Shown: positions 9-58,266 of the stretch, one piece after another
Numbering within the stretch: the first letter of the stretch is position 1
How the letters are laid out: each line of letters begins with the position of its first letter
Sequence record: NC_028927.1
Source of the DNA: Escherichia phage slur02
Reading direction: 5' to 3' (one strand)
DNA: 64,000 nucleotides
Notes under the pieces: model-generated
The model's database searches: none
What the model was told of the DNA's origin: nothing
What the model saw: only the letters and a program-made list of their open reading frames with translations
Made by a program: the position numbers and the translations under genes

Positions 9-36
9 AAAAAGGACTCCCGAAGGAGTCCTCAAC
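9..36 (-). terminator. rho-independent terminator hairpin (GGACTCC-CGAA-GGAGTCC) with T-run on minus strand
   Basis: Inverted repeat read directly at approx 13-30; A-run on + strand gives T-run on minus-strand RNA; just 3' of ORF 37..255; identical hairpin recurs at approx 54607-54624. Confidence 0.6.
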
Positions 37-16360: not shown

Positions 16361-16591
16361 TTATTGTTCAATCAGTCCCATGTAAAATTCTGCGTCTTCA
16401 GAATCCATGCCATCACAATATTCATTAGCCATAAAGCGGGTGAGGTCTTCAAGAGGACCTTCAATGACAATAGAAAAATTGCAATAATTGGGATCATCGT
16501 GAATACTTGTGATACTAAGCTCAGGATAACGATTACGAATAATTTCTTCAATATATTCAAAATCAACAATGTCAATATCAACTTTAGCCAT
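16361..16591 (-). CDS. hypothetical acidic protein (approx 76 aa)
   Basis: Track ORF 16361..16654 trimmed to the internal Met (MAKVDIDIV) preceded by AAGAGGAAAATAAT, because an early promoter occupies the 5' part of the track ORF. Confidence 0.45.
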
Positions 16592-16634
16592 ATTATTTTC
16601 CTCTTTAATCATCAGCAGTATTGCCGATAGTTGT

Positions 16635-16664
16635 ATAGTACCATGGAAGGACAAGGATGTAAAC
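16635..16664 (-). promoter_or_regulatory. T4-type early promoter (GTTTAC-N18-TACTAT)
   Basis: Minus-strand cGGTTTACatccttgtccttccatggTACTATAcaactatc; immediately downstream of the gene 32 terminator (approx coords). Confidence 0.55.
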
Positions 16665-16689
16665 CGTTTTGTGAAAAAATTTTTGAAAT

Positions 16690-16716
16690 AAAAAAGGGGA
16701 CCTCTAGGGTCCCCAA
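16690..16716 (-). terminator. rho-independent terminator after gene 32 (GGGGACC-CTAGA-GGTCCCC + T-run)
   Basis: Perfect 7 bp GC stem with T-run on minus strand, directly 3' of gene 32. Confidence 0.65.
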
Positions 16717-16736
16717 TTAATTAGTAATGTAATCTA

Positions 16737-17645
16737 TTAAAGGTCATTCAAAAGGTCATCTAGGTCCGTGTCATCAGCACTAGATGAACTACCAGAGCTT
16801 GAGCTCATAAAATCATCTTCAGTTTTTGTATTGAAGTCATCAACATTGAATGCATCCAAATCATCAGCAACTTTATCAGCTTTCTTAGCAGCAGTTGCAG
16901 CAGCACCGCCCATCACAGCAGTTCCCATAACTTGACCAAATTTAGTGCTCAGTTCTTCAAACGATTTGAATTTATCTTTAGAAGTCATTTCAGAAAGGTC
17001 AACCATTTGTTCGAACAGTTCTTTCTGGAAAGATTCATCATCAATGTTTGGAATCGCAGATTGATTCAGGAATTTAGATTCGTCGTAGTTACTAAATCCA
17101 GAAACTTGTTTAACTTTCAGTACAAAGTTAGCACCTTCCCACGGACAAGTTACATCAACTGGAGTTTCACCCATTTCAACATCAACCGCAATCATTGCAT
17201 TGATTTTATCCCAGATTTTCTTACCGAAACGGTATTTAAATACTTTACCTTCGTTTTCTGGAGCAGCTGGGTCTTTTACTACAAGAATGTTAGCCCAGTA
17301 AGAAGTTTTACGTTTAACAAGACTGTACTCTTTATTGTCAGTGTTGTACAGATCATTTTTACTGATGTACTGACATACTGGGCAAGAATCGTAATCACCG
17401 TGGGTAGATGAACAGTTTTCAATATACCATTTACCATTTTTCTTGAAACCGTGATTTACAAGAATTGCGAATGGTGCTTGTTCATCATTTTTAGACGGAA
17501 GAAAACGAATTACTGCTTGACCATTACCCGCATTGTCGAGTTTCAGTTTCCACTCGCCTTTATCTTCAGAAGAAAAACCACCTTTATTTCCAGCCAGTTT
17601 AGCCATTTGTGCAGCGAGTTCAGCAGTAGATTTACGTTTAAACAT
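16737..17645 (-). CDS. 32: gp32 single-stranded DNA-binding protein
   Basis: 302 aa ORF; gp32-like sequence with acidic Ser/Asp-rich C-terminal tail; synteny frd-32-59. Confidence 0.95.
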
Positions 17646-20010: not shown

Positions 20011-23000
20011 ATGGCCGAGATTAAAAGAAAGTTCAGAGCAGAAGACGGTCTGGACGCAGGTGGTGATAAAATAATCAACGTAGCTTTAGCTGATCGTACC
20101 GTAGGAACTGACGGTGTTAACGTTGATTACTTAATTCAAGAAAACACAGTTCAACAATACGATCCAACTCGTGGATATTTAAAAGATTTTGTAATCATTT
20201 ATGATAACCGCTTTTGGGCTGCTATAAATGATATTCCAAAACCGGCAGGAGCTTTTAATAGCGGACGCTGGAGAGCATTACGTACCGATGCTAACTGGAT
20301 TACGGTTTCATCTGGTTCATATCAATTAAAATCTGGTGAAGCTATTTCAGTTAACACCGCAGCTGGTAATGATATTACATTTACTTTACCATCTACCCCA
20401 ATTGATGGTGATACTATCGTTCTCCAAGATATTGGAGGAAAACCTGGAGTTAACCAAGTTTTAATTGTAGCTCCGGTGCAAAGTATTGTAAACTTTAGAG
20501 GTGAACAGGTACGTTCAGTACTAATGACTCATCCAAAGTCACAGCTAGTTTTAATTTTTAGTAATCGTCTGTGGCAAATGTATGTTGCTGATTATAGCAG
20601 AGAAGCTGTAGTTGTAACACCAGCAAGTCTATATCAGGCGCAATCTAATGATTTTATCGTACGTAGATTTACTTCTGCTGCACCGATAAATATTAAACTT
20701 CCAAGATTTGCTAATCACGGCGATATTATTAATTTCGTCGATTTGGACAAATTAAATCCACTTTATCATACAATTGTTACTACATACGATGAAACTACTT
20801 CAATACAAGAAGATGGAACTCATTCTATTGAAGGCCGTACATCGATTGACGGTTTCTTGATGTTTGATGATAATGAGAAATTGTGGAGATTGTTTGACGG
20901 GGATAGTAAAGCACGTTTACGCATTATAACGACTAATTCTAATATTCGTCCAAACGAAGAAGTTATGGTATTTGGTGCGAATAACGGAACAACTCAAACA
21001 ATTGAGCTTCAGCTTCCAACTAATATTTCTGTTGGTGATACTGTTAAAATTTCCATGAATTACATGAGAAAAGGACAAACAGTTAAAATCAAAGCTGCAG
21101 GTGAAGATAAAATTGCTTCTTCAGTTCAATTGCTGCAATTCCCAAAACGTTCAGAATATCCGCCTGAAGCTGAATGGGTGACTGTTCAAGAATTAGTTTT
21201 TAACGGTGAAACTAATTATGTTCCAGTTTTACAACTTGCTTATATAGAAGATTCTGACGGAAAATACTGGGTTGTACAACAAAACGTTCCAACCGTAGAA
21301 AGAGTTGATTCTTTAAATGATTCTACTAGAGCAAGATTAGGCGTAATTGCTTTAGCTACACAGGCTCAAGCTAACGTCGATTTAGAAAATTCTCCACAAA
21401 AAGAATTAGCAATTACTCCAGAAACATTAGCTAACCGTACTGCTACAGAAACTCGTAGAGGTATCGCAAGAATAGCAACTACTGCTCAAGTGAATCAGAA
21501 CACCACATTCTCTTTTGCTGATGATATTATCATCACTCCTAAAAAGCTGAATGAAAGAACTGCTACAGAAACTCGCAGAGGTGTTGCAGAAATTGCTACT
21601 CAGCAAGAAACAAACGCAGGAACAGATGATACAACCATCATTACTCCTAAAAAGCTTCAAGCTCGTCAAGGTTCTGAATCATTATCTGGTATTGTAACTT
21701 TTGTATCTACTGCAGGTGCTACTCCAGCTTCTAGCCGTGAATTAAATGGTACGAATGTTTATAATAAAAACACTAATAATTTAGTTGTTTCGCCAAAAGC
21801 TTTGGATCAATATAAAGCTACTCCAACGCAACAAGGTGCAGTAATTTTAGCAGTTGAAAGTGAAGTAATTGCTGGACAAAGCCAAGAAGGATGGGCAAAT
21901 GCGGTTGTAACGCCAGAAACGTTACATAAAAAGACATCAACTGATGCAAGAATTGGTTTAATTGAAATTGCTACGCAAAGTGAAGTTAATACAGGAACTG
22001 ATTATACTCGTGCAGTCACTCCTAAAACTTTAAATGACCGTAGAGCAACTGAAAGTTTAAGTGGTATAGCTGAAATTGCTACACAGGTTGAATTCGACGC
22101 AGGCGTCGACGATACTCGTATCTCTACACCATTAAAAATTAAAACCAGATTTAATAGTACTGATCGTACTTCTGTTGTTGCTCTATCTGGATTAGTTGAA
22201 TCAGGAACTCTCTGGGACCATTATACCCTTAATATTCTTGAAGCAAATGAGACACAGCGTGGTACACTTCGTGTAGCTACACAAGTTGAAGCTGCTGCAG
22301 GAACATTAGATAATGTTTTAATAACTCCTAAAAAGCTTTTAGGTACTAAATCTACTGAAGCACAAGAAGGTGTTATTAAAGTTGCAACTCAGTCTGAAAC
22401 TGTGACTGGAACGTCAACAAATACTGCTGTATCTCCAAAAAATTTAAAATGGATTGTGCAGAGTGAACCTACTTGGGCAGCTACTACTGCAATAAGAGGT
22501 TTTGTTAAAACTTCATCTGGTTCAATTACATTCGTTGGTAATGATACAGTCGGTTCTACACAAGATTTAGAACTGTATGAGAAAAATAGCTATGCAGTAT
22601 CACCATATGAATTAAACCGTGTATTAGCAAATTATCTGCCGTTAAAAGCAAAAGCTGTAGATAGTAATTTATTGGATGGTCTAGATTCATCTCAGTTCAT
22701 TCGTAGGGATATTGCACAGACGGTTAATGGTTCACTAACCTTAACCCAACAAACGAATCTGAGTGCCCCTCTTGTATCATCTAGTACTGCTACGTTCGGT
22801 GGATCAGTCACAGCAAATAGTACATTAACTATTTCTAATACTGGTACGTCTTCTTCTCGATTTACATTTGAGAAGGGTCCTGCTTCTGGTAGTAATGCTG
22901 ATTCTGCACTGCATGTTCGTGTATGGGGTAATAAGTACAGCGGCGGTTCTGATGTAACTCGCGCAACGATTATAGAATTCTATGATGCATCCGGCACTCA

Positions 23001-33795: not shown

Positions 33796-33836
33796 TTTCT
33801 AATCTCCGTAATTCTGTATCAGTAGTTGATAGTTGT

Positions 33837-33866
33837 ATAGTACCACAGTATGCTTTGGTTGTAAAC
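33837..33866 (-). promoter_or_regulatory. T4-type early promoter for motA (GTTTAC-N18-TACTAT)
   Basis: Minus-strand GGTTTACaaccaaagcatactgtggTACTATAcaactatcaactactgatacag; near-identical to promoters at 16635 and 37703. Confidence 0.55.
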
Positions 33867-33875
33867 CGTTTTGTG

Positions 33876-33916
33876 AAAAAAATTTTAAAATAAAAAGGGA
33901 GAGCCAAGGCTCTCCC
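33876..33916 (-). terminator. terminator hairpin (GGGAGAGCC-AAGG-CTCTCCC) + T/A-rich run
   Basis: 8 bp GC stem read directly, immediately upstream (on minus strand) of the motA early promoter. Confidence 0.6.
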
Positions 33917-33921
33917 TAAAA

Positions 33922-37465: not shown

Positions 37466-37680
37466 TAATCCGCTAAAAGATCGACGATTGCATCACGAAG
37501 ACACTTATTCGCAATACGTTTAAGAGCAATTTCAGTTTCTGGAGCATTTTGAATAATCATCGAATTCAACTCAGCCTCAGCAAACTGAAGTTCTTTAACT
37601 AGTTCAGCTTTATATTTCCCTTGCCCTTTCTTAGCCTTTGCCCGTTTTAATTCAGCTGTAGTAAACATTTTATTCTCCAA
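37462..37680 (-). CDS. hypothetical protein (72 aa)
   Basis: ORF track; early promoter upstream. Confidence 0.5.
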   Translation of the reverse strand: MENKMFTTAELKRAKAKKGQGKYKAELVKELQFAEAELNSMIIQNAPETEIALKRIANKCLRDAIVDLLADY

Positions 37681-37702
37681 ATCCGTATCAGTTGATAGTT
37701 GT

Positions 37703-37732
37703 ATAGTACCACAGTCCTTGTGGTATGTAAAC
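37703..37732 (-). promoter_or_regulatory. T4-type early promoter (GTTTAC-N18-TACTAT)
   Basis: Minus-strand cagTTTACAtaccacaaggactgtggTACTATAcaactatcaactga with AT-rich upstream element. Confidence 0.55.
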
Positions 37733-37750
37733 TGTTTTATGAAATTTTTT

Positions 37751-38308
37751 TTAAATAGAAAGATACCATCCGTTGTAGTTGCTTTTTCTTACAACCTTAC
37801 GAAGGTCTTCTCTGTCACCGATGAACTTCGGAGTGTACTGGATGACACCTGGATGAATTTCTTTAGTGTTGAATATAATTATACAGTCCGCGACTTGATG
37901 ATTTAGAATGGGCCCTAGATTTATTCCAGAACCGTATGGATACTCTCCGCTGCATCCTGTTGTTACAGAAATCCAACGTGAGTCAGTTTGGTGTGTCTTA
38001 ACTTCTACACGAAGCCCGCAGTATCTTGGATGCGCCAATACATCCCATGCGTATGTATACGGGTCATTAACATCTTCTTGACCTTTATTAACATATCCGC
38101 TTAGCCAATCTGCCACAAAAAACTCTGCGTACACAGCGATACGACATCTTTCGATAACTTCTGCTTTATCCTGGTTCGGGTTTTGTTTTAAAGAGTATCT
38201 TGCTGTATCAGCAATTTTGACCTTCATTTCACTAGTCAAGTCACTGTTCGATAGGGTAAATGTCGGAATCTGAAATAGTCTCTGTAAACCCGGATTCGTT
38301 TTCTGCAT
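37751..38308 (-). CDS. denB: endonuclease IV (DenB), 185 aa
   Basis: 185 aa as T4 DenB; position next to rIIB. Confidence 0.8.
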   Translation of the reverse strand: MQKTNPGLQRLFQIPTFTLSNSDLTSEMKVKIADTARYSLKQNPNQDKAEVIERCRIAVYAEFFVADWLSGYVNKGQEDVNDPYTYAWDVLAHPRYCGLRVEVKTHQTDSRWISVTTGCSGEYPYGSGINLGPILNHQVADCIIIFNTKEIHPGVIQYTPKFIGDREDLRKVVRKSNYNGWYLSI

Positions 38309-45873: not shown

Positions 45874-45918
45874 GTATCAGTAGTTGATATTGATATAGTA
45901 CCATAATCAACTACTGAT
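45874..45918 (-). promoter_or_regulatory. early-promoter-like -10 (TACTAT) bracketed by a perfect 13-bp inverted repeat
   Basis: atcagtagttgat ... atcaactactgat read directly with TACTATA between the arms; no canonical GTTTAC -35. Confidence 0.4.
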
Positions 45919-45948
45919 GTATATAGTTTTATGAAAAAATTTTAAACT

Positions 45949-46437
45949 TTATGCATAGAGAGCATTGCTATAGTGTTTAATCCAACTTTCAGGAATGACT
46001 TTGTATGTTCCTAAAAATACCACATTGTATAACTTAACGCCATCTTCTACCCATTGATCGGTAATATATCCACACATAGCACGAGTATAAGCAGCCTTTC
46101 CATCATCTTTGATAAATTTAAATTCGCAAGGAGCAATGAACTTAATAGCTTGACCGAGTTTCCACTTAAAGTCTACGCCTACATGTGAAGTATCAATCGT
46201 TTCAATTACTTTAGCAGGAACAGCTTTCAAAAACGCAGATTCAAGAAATTTCGCACGAACATAGCCAAACTGGGGTTTAGACTTTCCATCTTTAGGAATG
46301 ATACGCACTTTTACTTCAGAATCTTCATCTTTAACGCCATGTTTAAGCTGAATGCTTACAATTTCGACCAATTTTCCTGCTGCTTTAGAGCGGGATTTAT
46401 CAGATACACGAGCTAATTCACCAATATTAATAATCAT
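45949..46437 (-). CDS. hypothetical protein (162 aa), possibly MotB-like
   Basis: ORF track; 162 aa matches T4 MotB size; shares a C-terminal motif with the next ORF. Confidence 0.5.
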   Translation of the reverse strand: MIINIGELARVSDKSRSKAAGKLVEIVSIQLKHGVKDEDSEVKVRIIPKDGKSKPQFGYVRAKFLESAFLKAVPAKVIETIDTSHVGVDFKWKLGQAIKFIAPCEFKFIKDDGKAAYTRAMCGYITDQWVEDGVKLYNVVFLGTYKVIPESWIKHYSNALYA

Positions 46438-46510
46438 AGTTATTTCTCACTTGTTAAAAAGATTTTATACTCCGCGGGACCATTATACTCTGGTCCCAAG
46501 AGTTTGTAAA

Positions 46511-46948
46511 CTAGCTTACACGAACATTAATCACTGCGCTGCGAGGAACTACGGAGTACTCTCCAGCATGAACTACATTAAGAAGTTCAACGCCATCTTC
46601 AATCCACTGGTCAGTTACCCAACCGCCAATCGGATTCGCGAATGGACGACGAATATAAACTGCCTTACACAACAAATCAGTCGGGTCTTCAGGTTTTTCA
46701 ATTTCTGTCAATAGACTAAAATCTTTTTCATAAATAATAAGCGGTGATACCATTCCATAATAGTTTCTAATTTCAATATACATCATACCGATAAGAATTC
46801 CGCTATTAACACTAATAACAGTAAAAGGATATCCGCCAGTTAAACCAAGAAGTTCACAAAACTTATTATGAGCTGTATTAGACAGTACCGAAAAATTCTT
46901 AATTTCATCAAATTTTTTCAATTGATAAACAGCATTATTTTTAATCAT
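46511..46948 (-). CDS. hypothetical protein (145 aa), C-terminal paralog of the preceding ORF
   Basis: Shared motif W/Y-x-TDQW-I/V-EDGV-x-L-x-NVV seen in both translations. Confidence 0.5.
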   Translation of the reverse strand: MIKNNAVYQLKKFDEIKNFSVLSNTAHNKFCELLGLTGGYPFTVISVNSGILIGMMYIEIRNYYGMVSPLIIYEKDFSLLTEIEKPEDPTDLLCKAVYIRRPFANPIGGWVTDQWIEDGVELLNVVHAGEYSVVPRSAVINVRVS

Positions 46949-46958
46949 AATTTTCTCT

Positions 46959-47462
46959 TTAATCTAAGGTAATAAAGCCTTTTAATTCGGCATGGGATTT
47001 GCGGAACATTACTTGGTGCCCACCAATGATAACTTCATCTTCAGGAACTTCGTATACAGCAAGATAAAATCCTTTAGAAGCTAATTCTTCACGCTCTTCT
47101 CGTGTGAACCATCTCATCATATCATATTCACTAGCGAAAGCAAAATGATAAAGAGCTATAAACCATCCTGGAATATAGTGATCTACGCCTACATATTCCT
47201 CTTTCTCAAATTTAGTATTAATTGCTATATTAGCATTTTTAACTAATAATTTGTCTTCGCGCGGAAGAGGAATTCTTTTGTTATCATTACTATGATGTGT
47301 AAAATTAGGTCTATCATAACCTACGTGTAATAACCACTCTTCGCTCCATGAATCTATTATACTCCTGTATGGCGTTATTTGAACACAAAGATTTCGACGT
47401 ATTGTTATAGCATCTTCACAATTAAGAATACTAAACGATGATTCAACACGGTAAATTTTCAT
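46959..47462 (-). CDS. hypothetical protein (approx 167 aa)
   Basis: Track ORF begins at a non-ATG codon inside the promoter; trimmed to the internal ATG (MKIYRVESS) preceded by GAGGATAATAAA. Confidence 0.5.
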   Translation of the reverse strand: MKIYRVESSFSILNCEDAITIRRNLCVQITPYRSIIDSWSEEWLLHVGYDRPNFTHHSNDNKRIPLPREDKLLVKNANIAINTKFEKEEYVGVDHYIPGWFIALYHFAFASEYDMMRWFTREEREELASKGFYLAVYEVPEDEVIIGGHQVMFRKSHAELKGFITLD

Positions 47463-51811: not shown

Positions 51812-52431
51812 TCAACTACCTCAATATCATAAACTTTAAATGTTCCAAATGAATCGTGTAATTTTTCTTTTGAAATAGAAGTTATTTTATACTTTCCAAT
51901 TGGAATCATCCATTCTTGTTCACGCACAATCATCATTAAGTTATCAGTACGCTCTGAATCTAATCCATCAGTATCTTCATACGTGTACTTAAACTCAGTA
52001 TTAGGAGAAGAAAGTATAATATCGCTGATATGGTCAGAATAATTAAAAGCTTTATTAGTTTTTAAGCGAAGTATTATTTTAGTAAAATATTCAGCGTAAG
52101 AAAAAGAACATGCTGTGAGCAAACTAGTAGTAAATGAATCTACCCTGTTCGTTGAAAACACTTCTCCAACTTGTAAATCTTTAATAAGTTCTTCTGTTGA
52201 TTTTGATATACCACGATATAACTGATAAGGCGATTTAGTTAAATGCTTTTTAATGATTTTATTCAACTGTCTGTGAAGAGCTTCATTCTTTTTGGCTTCC
52301 ATACATTGCCAAAGAACAGACTGCTCAAAGTCAGTAAATTTTTCACAGACCTTTTTATACATATCATATTGAAAATCAACGCTTTCAGCTTTTATAGATA
52401 ACTGTTCAACATCTGCAAGATTAATAATCAT
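51808..52431 (-). CDS. modB: ADP-ribosyltransferase ModB (207 aa)
   Basis: ART signature (YRGIS ... STN ... EQEWMIP); 207 aa. Confidence 0.75.
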   Translation of the reverse strand: MIINLADVEQLSIKAESVDFQYDMYKKVCEKFTDFEQSVLWQCMEAKKNEALHRQLNKIIKKHLTKSPYQLYRGISKSTEELIKDLQVGEVFSTNRVDSFTTSLLTACSFSYAEYFTKIILRLKTNKAFNYSDHISDIILSSPNTEFKYTYEDTDGLDSERTDNLMMIVREQEWMIPIGKYKITSISKEKLHDSFGTFKVYDIEVVE

Positions 52432-52458
52432 GATAGCCTCCGTATACTTCAGAAGCTA

Positions 52459-52487
52459 TCATATCATCGTTAGAAAGGAAAGTAAAC
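52459..52487 (-). promoter_or_regulatory. T4-type early promoter (GTTTAC-N17-TATGAT)
   Basis: Minus-strand aaaGTTGTTTACtttcctttctaacgatgaTATGATag upstream of modB. Confidence 0.5.
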
Positions 52488-54558: not shown

Positions 54559-54588
54559 TATTATACCATACTCATTTTGGAAAGTAAA
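54559..54588 (-). promoter_or_regulatory. T4-type early promoter (GTTTAC-N18-TATAAT)
   Basis: Minus-strand ccgGTTTACtttccaaaatgagtatggTATAATaaa immediately after the soc terminator. Confidence 0.55.
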
Positions 54589-54600
54589 CCGGTAAAATGA

Positions 54601-54625
54601 AAAAAGGACTCCCGAAGGAGTCCTT
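54601..54625 (-). terminator. rho-independent terminator after soc (GGACTCC-CGAA-GGAGTCC + T-run)
   Basis: Identical sequence to the hairpin at window positions approx 13-30. Confidence 0.65.
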
Positions 54626-54629
54626 GAAA

Positions 54630-54875
54630 TTATTCACCAGTTACTTTCCACAAATCTTCATTTGCAGCAATCCATTCAGTACGTTGATTTTCTTCATATA
54701 CTGTAGAATACGCTGCTTTTTCTGAAGGGAATGTCTGGTAATGAGCGCCAGAAATTTTGTGAACATCAGAATAAAGAGGGAAAGCTACAGAAATTTCCTT
54801 TCCTTCAATTTTCTTATTTCCATCTAATTTCTGCTCAAATGTTTTGATATTAACATAACCGCGAGTACTAGCCAT
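54630..54875 (-). CDS. soc: Soc small outer capsid protein
   Basis: 81-codon ORF; sequence recalled as T4 Soc (MASTRGYVNIKTFEQKLDGNKKIEGKEISVAFPLY...). Confidence 0.9.
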   Translation of the reverse strand: MASTRGYVNIKTFEQKLDGNKKIEGKEISVAFPLYSDVHKISGAHYQTFPSEKAAYSTVYEENQRTEWIAANEDLWKVTGE

Positions 54876-57115: not shown

Positions 57116-57278
57116 TTACTCTTCTTTTTCTTTAGATTCCTCTTTTTTCTTTTTAGGAATCTGTTCAGGGCCTTTATTTACTACAGCGCCTGACGTTGTT
57201 CCAATAGAGATATTTTCAGGATTACCACCTGAATCTCCAGCGACCATATCTTCTTTAATAAATTCTTTATATGTTTTC
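57116..57278 (-). CDS. possible small protein (approx 54 aa), 61.1-like
   Basis: Hand translation MKTYKEFIKEDMVAGDSGGNPENISIG...; stop lies 2 nt before the gene 61 ATG; below track cutoff. Confidence 0.35.
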
Positions 57279-57328
57279 ATATTAACCTCTATTCATAAAA
57301 GCATTAAAAATTTGGTCATCAATAGATG
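57279..57328. repeat. direct repeat copy 1 (approx 46 bp)
   Basis: attaacctctattcataaaagcattaaaaatttggtcatcaatagat, near-identical to the copy at approx 57639. Confidence 0.8.
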
Positions 57329-57638
57329 GAATAGCAACCTTTTCGGCATCATTTAGCAAATCATTAATTTCATCAGATAGCATAACACATGTGCCTTTAT
57401 TTCCTGTAATTGTTACTGCACAATTACGAACGTTTTCTTTATCAAATTTTAGGTTAATATTTTCGTAGTGAAAATCCTTTAATGCCGAATATATCTTTAA
57501 AATGAAATTGTCTTTTACTACAATAAACCCAACTTCACTATTAAAACGTGGTTCATGGAAACTGTAATAAACCTTTTCATCTATGAAATCGTATGAAATT
57601 TTTTCCATTTTTAAATATGAAAATTCAGAACTATACAT
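57282..57638 (-). CDS. hypothetical protein (118 aa), paralog of the C-terminal half of the next ORF
   Basis: Shares motif YxSF...VG-F/I-x-VKDN-x-I and an identical C-terminal tail SIDDQIFNAFMNR with ORF 57640..58266. Confidence 0.5.
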   Translation of the reverse strand: MYSSEFSYLKMEKISYDFIDEKVYYSFHEPRFNSEVGFIVVKDNFILKIYSALKDFHYENINLKFDKENVRNCAVTITGNKGTCVMLSDEINDLLNDAEKVAIPSIDDQIFNAFMNRG

Positions 57639-57686
57639 ATTAATCTCTATTCATAAAAGCATTAAAAATTTGGTCATCAATAGAAA
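57639..57686. repeat. direct repeat copy 2 (approx 46 bp)
   Basis: attaatctctattcataaaagcattaaaaatttggtcatcaatagaa; one mismatch to copy 1. Confidence 0.8.
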
Positions 57687-58266
57687 CATTTACTTTAGAC
57701 TGTTTTTCAGATGGCAATTCATATCCACATATTACAATTTTATGATCAATATCAAAATACACAGAAGCAATATGATTAATGATATTTTCAGTGAAGTCTA
57801 AATCGACATCAATATCTTTTTGACCAAATCCCAGAGGATAAATAATGCGAGTAATTCGATTATCTTTAACAAAGATTCCACCGACATACTCTGTACTGCG
57901 TTTAAAGTCTACACGCCGACGAAATGAAAAATATTCAGGCTCTTTATGAGCTCGGCTCATAGGACACAACGAATAACTAGAATAAGAGATGTCAAATCCT
58001 ACGCCTTCGATATGAGCCAAAGTGTCATGATTAAACCAATTATAATCGTACGCCAAATCCATTAGATTATAATATGTAAAAGGCACCGGATTAACATCAT
58101 TAGTCACAAGCATGTAATTAGCAACTGCTATAATTTCATTGTTTTTAACGAATACAAACCGTGATTGATGCGAATGACCTGGACCCGCGTTTTCACGATT
58201 AATGATATAACACTGGGCACCTTTATATTTGTATGTATCTTTGCACTTGTGCATTTGATAGAGCAT
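57640..58266 (-). CDS. hypothetical protein (208 aa) with internally repeated FVKxN domain, 61.2-like position
   Basis: Internal repeat RFVFVKNNEIIAVANY / GGIFVKDNRITRIIY; C-terminus duplicated in the adjacent ORF. Confidence 0.55.
   Translation of the reverse strand: MLYQMHKCKDTYKYKGAQCYIINRENAGPGHSHQSRFVFVKNNEIIAVANYMLVTNDVNPVPFTYYNLMDLAYDYNWFNHDTLAHIEGVGFDISYSSYSLCPMSRAHKEPEYFSFRRRVDFKRSTEYVGGIFVKDNRITRIIYPLGFGQKDIDVDLDFTENIINHIASVYFDIDHKIVICGYELPSEKQSKVNVSIDDQIFNAFMNRD

Follow-up and report, generated by a model that had tools for sequence, protein, structure and literature searches.

Terminator hairpins followed by early promoters in a Tequatrovirus genome: anatomy, conservation and coincidence with gene exchange

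Introduction

In the DNA analysed here, a GC-rich hairpin behind gene 32 is followed directly by an early promoter. Does this arrangement separate two transcription units, or is it a site at which accessory genes are exchanged? An earlier note favoured the latter and regarded the arrangement, which it saw at several loci, as promoter early stem-loop (PeSL) cassettes that mark module boundaries. PeSLs and their T4/PST consensus TTTACW-N17-TAYWAT have been defined previously (Arbiol et al. 2010, PMC2839356; Comeau, Arbiol & Krisch 2014, PMC4122927). For RB49/phi1, mini-circles were demonstrated, and experimental mapping placed PeSL crossovers in the stretch from the -10 to the ATG (PMC2839356). 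T4 early promoters, on the other side, are described as "UP/-35/TGn/-10" promoters with additional consensus regions (Hinton 2010, review, PMC2988021).

Materials and methods

The window, i.e., the whole stretch of 64,000 nucleotides that was analysed, is 100% identical to Escherichia phage slur04 (NC_042130.1; Tequatrovirus, the genus of T4) and wraps over the ends of that record. Its gene order is 30.9, cd, pseT, nrdAB, td, frd, 32, 59, and rnh in the first part, the tail-fibre genes 34-38 and t on the plus strand in the middle, then asiA, motA, 52, ndd, denB, rIIB, rIIA, 39, motB, dexA, and dda, and modAB, mrh, soc, 56, 61, 41, uvsX, and 42 at the end. Except for the tail-fibre block, transcription runs on the minus strand throughout the window; hence, the cassettes are to be read on the minus strand.

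The full window was compared with six GenBank Tequatroviruses (T4, T2, ES21, HEMP5, PM136, and LH2) and, over most of its length, with four close relatives from IMG/VR, also Tequatrovirus genomes. Breakpoints were defined as the edges of gaps of at least 40 bp in chained blastn alignments of these ten relatives, with the tail-fibre genes excluded. For the comparison of promoters, 18 sites were aligned with the -35 as anchor. The window was also scanned in full against Rfam, with 0 matches.

Results

The gene 32/frd.3 cassette

The cassette consists of the following features:

16635-16714, minus strand: gene 32/frd.3 cassette, hairpin and T-run, then an early promoter GTTTAC-N17-TAnnAT
16696-16714, minus strand: predicted rho-independent terminator after gene 32 (ssb), GGGGACC-CTAGA-GGTCCCC and T6, -14.3 kcal/mol, z -2.0
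16666-16684, minus strand: UP-like tract AAAAATTTTTTCACAAAAC upstream of the frd.3 promoter
16635-16663, minus strand: frd.3 early promoter, -35 TTTACA at 16658-16663, TGG and -10 TACTAT at 16635-16640

Read along the minus strand, the gene 32 stop at 16737 is followed by the hairpin, the T-run, AAAAATTTTTTCACAAAACG, and GTTTACA, and then by a 17-nt spacer ending in TGG, TACTAT, CAACTATC..., AGAGGA, and the frd.3 ATG at 16591. The T-run (16687-16695) merges into the UP-like A/T tract of the next promoter.

Terminators after T4 genes 32 and soc are well known. Their hallmarks, namely a GC stem, a tetraloop-type loop (UUCG/CUUG), and a U-run directly after a highly expressed gene, recur in the window, with the difference that the T-run here doubles as the distal half of the UP element of the next promoter. 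Among 13 terminators from different genera of the Tevenvirinae, compensatory changes occur in six of the eight pairs of the gene 32 hairpin. With its GC-rich stem, short loop, U-run, and evolutionarily conserved structure, the element has what is expected of an intrinsic terminator, and termination is predicted at this site.

Within the genus, the cassette is nearly invariant, being unbroken in 489 of 497 matching records. The succession of gene 32 stop, hairpin, and GTTTAC promoter is also present in 24 of 25 Tevenvirinae genomes, in which gp32 is 57-99% identical to that of the window. The gene that follows varies by genus and is frd.3, another small ORF, or frd itself, which makes the cassette the edge of a variable block at deep divergence. 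At the same position, the flanks of T4 and slur04 are identical, and the spacers between them are unrelated. The T4 spacer orthologous to 16641-16657 contains a perfect 14-nt palindrome, CATAAAGCTTTATG, and slur04, PM136, and LH2 share TCCTTGTCCTTCCATGG, which is unrelated to it.

One IMG/VR genome (L008, IMGVR_UViG_2974787500_000001) has a 76-bp deletion equivalent to 16684-16761, which takes away the gene 32 hairpin together with the final ~8 codons of gp32 and places the frd.3 promoter straight after the truncated gene 32. This deletion could be real or an assembly artefact.

The product of frd.3 (16361-16591, 76 aa) matches only positions 317-391 of the 391-position PHROG profile phrog_1764, and the gene is labelled as a second "ssDNA-binding protein" in several GenBank records. 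The partial match suggests that phrog_1764 includes longer or fused gene models.

Related elements elsewhere in the window

At all three loci for which the earlier note had described a hairpin followed by an early promoter, we found both elements, on the minus strand and within 1-2 nt of the positions it had given. Together with promoter-only relatives, the further elements are:

33837-33917, minus strand: motA.1/motA cassette, hairpin, then promoter 33837-33865, TTTACA-N17-TACTAT
33896-33917, minus strand: predicted terminator hairpin after motA.1, -16.5 kcal/mol, z -3.5
33796-33865, minus strand: motA promoter and 5'UTR with GGAG Shine-Dalgarno (SD)
54560-54625, minus strand: soc/mrh.2 cassette, hairpin, then early promoter
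54604-54625, minus strand: predicted terminator hairpin after soc, -15.8 kcal/mol, z -3.7
54560-54588, minus strand: mrh.2 early promoter, TTTACT-N17-TATAAT, with TG
12-33, minus strand: predicted terminator hairpin after gene 30.9, its partner early promoter just outside the window
37669-37731, minus strand: ndd-region promoter (37703-37731) and 5'UTR, without hairpin, upstream of a variable ndd-region ORF
45895-45923, minus strand: degenerate subfamily member, -35 TATACA, -10 TACTAT

The gap between hairpin and early promoter is 15-30 nt at 16635, 33837, and 54560. The left edge of the window cuts through a fourth complete cassette, whose hairpin (12-33) is inside and whose promoter is outside. 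No stable hairpin was found at 37703 (-2.1 kcal/mol, z = 0.2), nor a stem-loop at 45895, so these two are promoter-only "half" elements. The promoter TTTACA-N17-TACTAT is common to 16635, 33837, and 37703, and that at 54560 is TTTACT-N17-TATAAT.

All four cassettes have near-identical orthologues in T4, T2, ES21, HEMP5, PM136, and LH2, the T4 immediate-early promoters being orthologous at frd.3, motA, the ndd region, and mrh.2. They are T4's own regulatory elements. Their assignment to the PeSL type, as the earlier note had it, also holds: the T4/PST consensus, the upstream stem-loop (at 16635, 33837, and 54560), the AT-rich region, the SD, and the ATG are all present.

The early promoters form a class

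Generic sigma-70 consensus scans gave no excess over shuffles in this AT-rich DNA (13 vs 9.2, 22 vs 22.4, and 15 vs 12.0) and are thus uninformative; the T4-specific pattern was used instead. With 0.40 sites expected, GTTTAC-N18-TANNAT occurs at 15 in the window, every one on the minus strand. Extension of the pattern to GTTTAC...TACTATAC gives three sites, exactly 16635, 33837, and 37703, with 0.00 expected. The generic counts taken alone would suit AT-rich, promoter-like hexamers that lie near hairpins by chance. This explanation, however, is refuted by the excess of the T4-specific patterns on one strand, the positional conservation across genera, and the covariation in the hairpin, and we give it practically no credence.

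Altogether, 18 early promoters were recognised in the window, three of them with a terminator (four with the copy at the window edge), and eight of the 18 sit 0-8 nt from the stop codon of the upstream gene. Conserved across all 18 are an upstream A/T tract, GTTTAC(A/T), TGTGG ahead of the -10, and "TATCAA" a few bases past it. The distance from promoter to ATG is 26-43 nt. Like T4 immediate-early promoters, they combine a GTTTAC -35, a TG-extended -10, an A/T-rich UP region, and an extra start-site consensus, and nothing substantive differs.

A subfamily with extended flanks

Within this class, a subfamily is defined by the -10 TACTAT and the leader CAACTATCAACT. It corresponds to D1, the top direct-repeat family of the whole window, with copies at 16626-16700, 33828-33902 (83%), 37694-37768 (67%), and 45886-45960 (61%). 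A UP-element-like upstream flank and the motif TGGTACTATACAACTATC are common to 16635, 33837, 37703, and the degenerate 45895, while the spacers differ. The start region of the subfamily promoters is CAACTATCAAC, and TACTATACAACTATC serves as the label of the subfamily. The promoters at 16635, 33837, and 37703 have an extra near-perfect UP-element-like tract, AAAAATTTTTT-cac-AAAA, which we take to match the E. coli UP-element consensus. Over the upstream 25 nt, identity between 16635 and 33837 is 92%; within the trio, spacer identity is 35-53%, which is not above background (0.36). Downstream, "caactatcaact" is common to 33837, 37703, and 45895 only, and 16635 departs after "caactatc". Thus, the near-identical flanks that had been noticed at 16635, 33837, and 37703 are real, except that caactatcaact is not part of 16635, and a hairpin is lacking at 37703.

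The leaders of motA, ndd, and 45895 are homologous through the 5'UTR almost to the ATG, which exceeds what RNA-polymerase contacts explain. The comparison across genera is also informative. Outside the hexamers, the gene 32 and motA cassettes of Tequatrovirus are 74% identical to each other, and their identity to the orthologues from two other genera is 33-49%, whereas in these two genera, orthologues are 54-74% alike and paralogues 37-54%. Hence, universal functional constraint alone is insufficient for the Tequatrovirus flanks, and the pattern points to copying or conversion in this lineage or to selection specific to it. Part of the flank is ancient, as a distant genus (L106/L107; MotA 52% identical) has CACAAAACAGTTTACA / CACAAAAC(A/G)GTTTACA upstream of motA.

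Could selection on promoter function, be it convergent or purifying, have produced the similarity by itself, without any copying or conversion between loci and without the cassettes having a part in recombination? The resemblance of the shared upstream flank to the UP-element consensus, the unrelated spacers, and the flank in the distant genus argue for it. Against it, the leader homology of motA, ndd, and 45895 runs well past the RNA-polymerase contacts, orthologous promoters in other genera have different flanks, and the duplication of the ES21 type described below is a true direct repeat bracketing an ORF. We consider this explanation rather improbable.

Polymorphism at the individual loci

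motA: ES21, HEMP5, PM136, and three of the four IMG/VR Tequatrovirus genomes have an insertion of ~320 bp with an ORF of 75 codons between motA.1 and motA. The ORF has its own second early promoter and is found in a substantial minority of Tequatroviruses. In the ES21-type arrangement, it is bracketed by a direct repeat of ~33 nt that comprises the -10 and the leader (TACTATA..CTATCAAATAAATGAACTGAAAC). By its sequence, the insertion has the very architecture predicted by the PeSL model. PHROG searches with the variable cargo ORFs returned only families of "unknown function".

We also considered whether the arrangement of the window is a simple deletion derivative of the ES21 type. We rejected this as the leaders differ ("actactgatacagaattac" vs "ataaatgaactgaaac").

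ndd: The ndd 5'UTR and the motA leader are homologous. At the ndd junction, no more than 113 of 507 records are colinear, with breaks at 37666 (the ATG) or at 37690 (just past the -10). Three alternative ORFs are joined to one ndd leader in different phages. The exchange concerns the locus of Fig. 6A in Comeau et al. 2014 (PMC4122927).

45895: The leader "atcaactactgatacagaa" is identical to the motA leader. The ORF downstream is missing in eight of the ten relatives, with the edge 7 nt inside the ORF.

soc/mrh.2: At this cassette, 356 of 536 records are colinear. The recurrent break at 54639 lies between the soc stop codon and the hairpin.

Of the proposed role as module or exchange boundaries, therefore, the part that stands concerns motA, ndd, soc, and 45895, which are indel sites; it does not extend to the largely intact gene 32 cassette. 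The breakpoints between a -10 and an ATG (37666/37690, 3494, 15883, and 45844) lie where the crossovers in the RB49/phi1 mini-circles do.

Breakpoints and cassettes

The ten relatives gave 65 distinct breakpoint edges. These touched 8/18 promoter junctions and 30/85 other junctions, i.e., no enrichment (OR 1.5, p = 0.59), with similar results for a padding of 15 or 50 bp. Of the non-coding edges, 5/17 fell in promoter footprints, where 41% was expected. Both tests indicate that breakpoints concentrate at gene boundaries generally and not at cassettes specifically. Complete cassettes considered separately had a breakpoint in 3/3 cases vs 35/100 others (one-sided p = 0.048), and the four-member subfamily in 4/4 vs 34/99 (p = 0.017, in a post hoc test). 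The sole breakpoint at 16635 is the 76-bp deletion in L008; without this case, the p-values become 0.29 for complete cassettes and 0.13 for the subfamily. The association of breakpoints with cassettes, by which the earlier note had wished to be judged, thus lacks a statistical excess and comes close to refutation, yet individual cassettes do coincide with breakpoints.

These data bear on the view that the cassettes are primarily recombination substrates (mobile PeSLs or mini-circles) that drive most of the accessory-gene exchange and mark module boundaries. Indels in relatives occur at 45895 and at three of the four named loci, the motA insertion has duplicated promoter and leader on its flanks, the two small-sample tests above lean the same way, paralogues appear homogenised in Tequatrovirus, and the mini-circles of RB49/phi1 (PMC2839356) provide a precedent. 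But neither breakpoint test over all promoters shows an enrichment, the gene 32 cassette is hardly ever broken, and the nominal significance disappears with the single genome L008. In addition, most window-specific ORFs have edges of another kind, as described in the following section, and promoter sequence is found at both ends in only one or two events. We regard this view as unlikely.

ORF gains and losses outside the cassettes

Most window-specific segments that are missing from relatives have words of 5-9 nt common to both edges, located at start codons. Typical words are TAAAATG, AAATGAAA, and AATTATG, with TAAAATGAAA as start-codon contexts. At one segment, 57326-57636, the edges are formed by a 49-nt repeat with 98% identity, which consists of a gene end, an SD, and an ATG and is not a promoter. 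Promoter sequence at both ends was seen for the motA insertion only, plus, loosely, for a deletion of 46512-47430 in T2. The rarity of such promoter-bounded indels argues that cassette-mediated exchange is a minority route in the window.

The T2 deletion was also examined as a promoter-to-promoter crossover. This was rejected: its edges lie 26 nt inside an ORF and just upstream of the second -35.

The copies of the 49-nt direct repeat (57278-57326 and 57636-57684) bracket the ORF 57282-57638. Segment 57326-57636 is absent in T4, ES21, HEMP5, and three IMG/VR genomes, and T2, PM136, and LH2 instead are without the neighbouring ORF 57649-58265 (61.2). From these complementary absences, it follows that slur04 combines, in tandem, two ORFs that are alternatives to each other in the relatives.

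Discussion

We consider it probable (about 85%) that the cassettes are transcription-unit boundary elements, composed of an intrinsic terminator and a strong immediate-early promoter, with recombination as a by-product. The intrinsic terminator would end transcripts of the strongly expressed gene that precedes it (gene 32, motA.1/52, or soc), and a very strong sigma-70 immediate-early promoter would start the next unit directly behind it. Its parts would be a near-consensus UP element (AAAAATTTTTT-cac-AAAA), the -35 GTTTACA, TGn, the -10 TA(C/T)(T/A)AT, and the start-site region CAACTATCAA. The resulting transcript likely begins with a short leader whose GGAG SD is the kind of site that RegB cleaves in motA mRNA; there, RegB is described to cut in the SD (PMC2988021). 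The anatomy, conservation, T4 orthology, and polymorphism of the cassettes are read directly from the genomes compared. Termination and initiation at these sites are expected from T4 homology and from the sequence, and activity with the unmodified host sigma-70 RNA polymerase right after infection is likely in view of the orthology to T4 loci and the literature.

The shared flanks would then be mostly RNA-polymerase contact elements kept by selection, and the 17-nt spacer would drift freely, which fits the published description of T4 early promoters. As a by-product, identical patches of 25-45 nt could serve the recombination system of the phage as homology, a mechanism that we infer for motA and ndd. 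For ORF gain and loss in the window, the cassettes would be a minor route.

Regarding PeSLs, the agreement comprises the upstream stem-loop, the AT-rich tract, TTTACW-N17-TAYWAT, the SD, and the ATG, the intergenic location in early-gene regions, and some ORF indels. Different here are the small share of early promoters with a real terminator hairpin (3/18, or four with the window-edge copy), the missing breakpoint enrichment compared with other junctions, and the gene 32 cassette, which is essentially invariant in the genus. The cassettes are already described elements without departure from the published description. What we report is a published element class recognised in a T4 relative, and no new biology is added. 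Nevertheless, in this 64-kb window, PeSL-type cassettes explain only a few of the ORF gains and losses with respect to ten relatives, and the dominance of start-codon microhomology tempers the published view that modular shuffling in T-even phages is driven in large part by the cassettes.

A more speculative proposal, which we think doubtful, goes further. The four-member subfamily (gene 32/frd.3, motA, ndd, and 45895) could be a "plug-in" cassette specific to Tequatrovirus, made of UP element, promoter, and leader, which was spread or homogenised by gene conversion after the genus split and at whose leader ORFs are swapped. Bulk ORF turnover would proceed via start-codon microhomology and not via PeSLs. 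If true, the subfamily would exceed generic early promoters in both specificity and mobility, and start-codon microhomology as the bulk route would revise the published PeSL model.

Further observations

The stems at 12-33 and 54604-54625 are almost the same although they are 54 kb apart: (G/A)AGGACTCC-TTCG-GGAGTCCTT and a T-run.

In several other genera of the Tevenvirinae (L009-L012, L021, and L023), the gene 32 terminator is separated from the early promoter by a long inverted repeat, located 30-110 nt past the gene 32 stop, for example GTAACGTAAAAGTTACATTAA...TAAAGTAACTTTTACGTTAC or GGCACATATATGTTACATTA...TAATGTAACATATATGTGCC. By sequence, it looks like a small palindromic insertion element.

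Antisense inside gene 34, a full match to GTTTACA-N17-TACAAT (20464-20493, minus strand) is conserved in T4 and LH2. The annotated oriG of T4 lies ~2.1 kb into gene 34. As the site is located ~450 nt into the gene, it is probably not the oriG primer promoter.

The early promoter at 46482-46510 (minus strand) has an inverted repeat across its -10 (GGGACCAGAG-TATAAT-GGTCCC). Here, the stem-loop overlaps the -10, as in one RB49 PeSL subclass, and is not an upstream terminator.

T4 silences translation from long transcripts by stems that pair with the SD and ATG. At 52429-52463 (minus strand), the -10 region of the 52458 promoter pairs with the downstream SD/ATG in a 14-bp stem of -17.7 kcal/mol with the arms TATGATAGC...GCTATCATG. 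The stem is predicted only in read-through transcripts from upstream.
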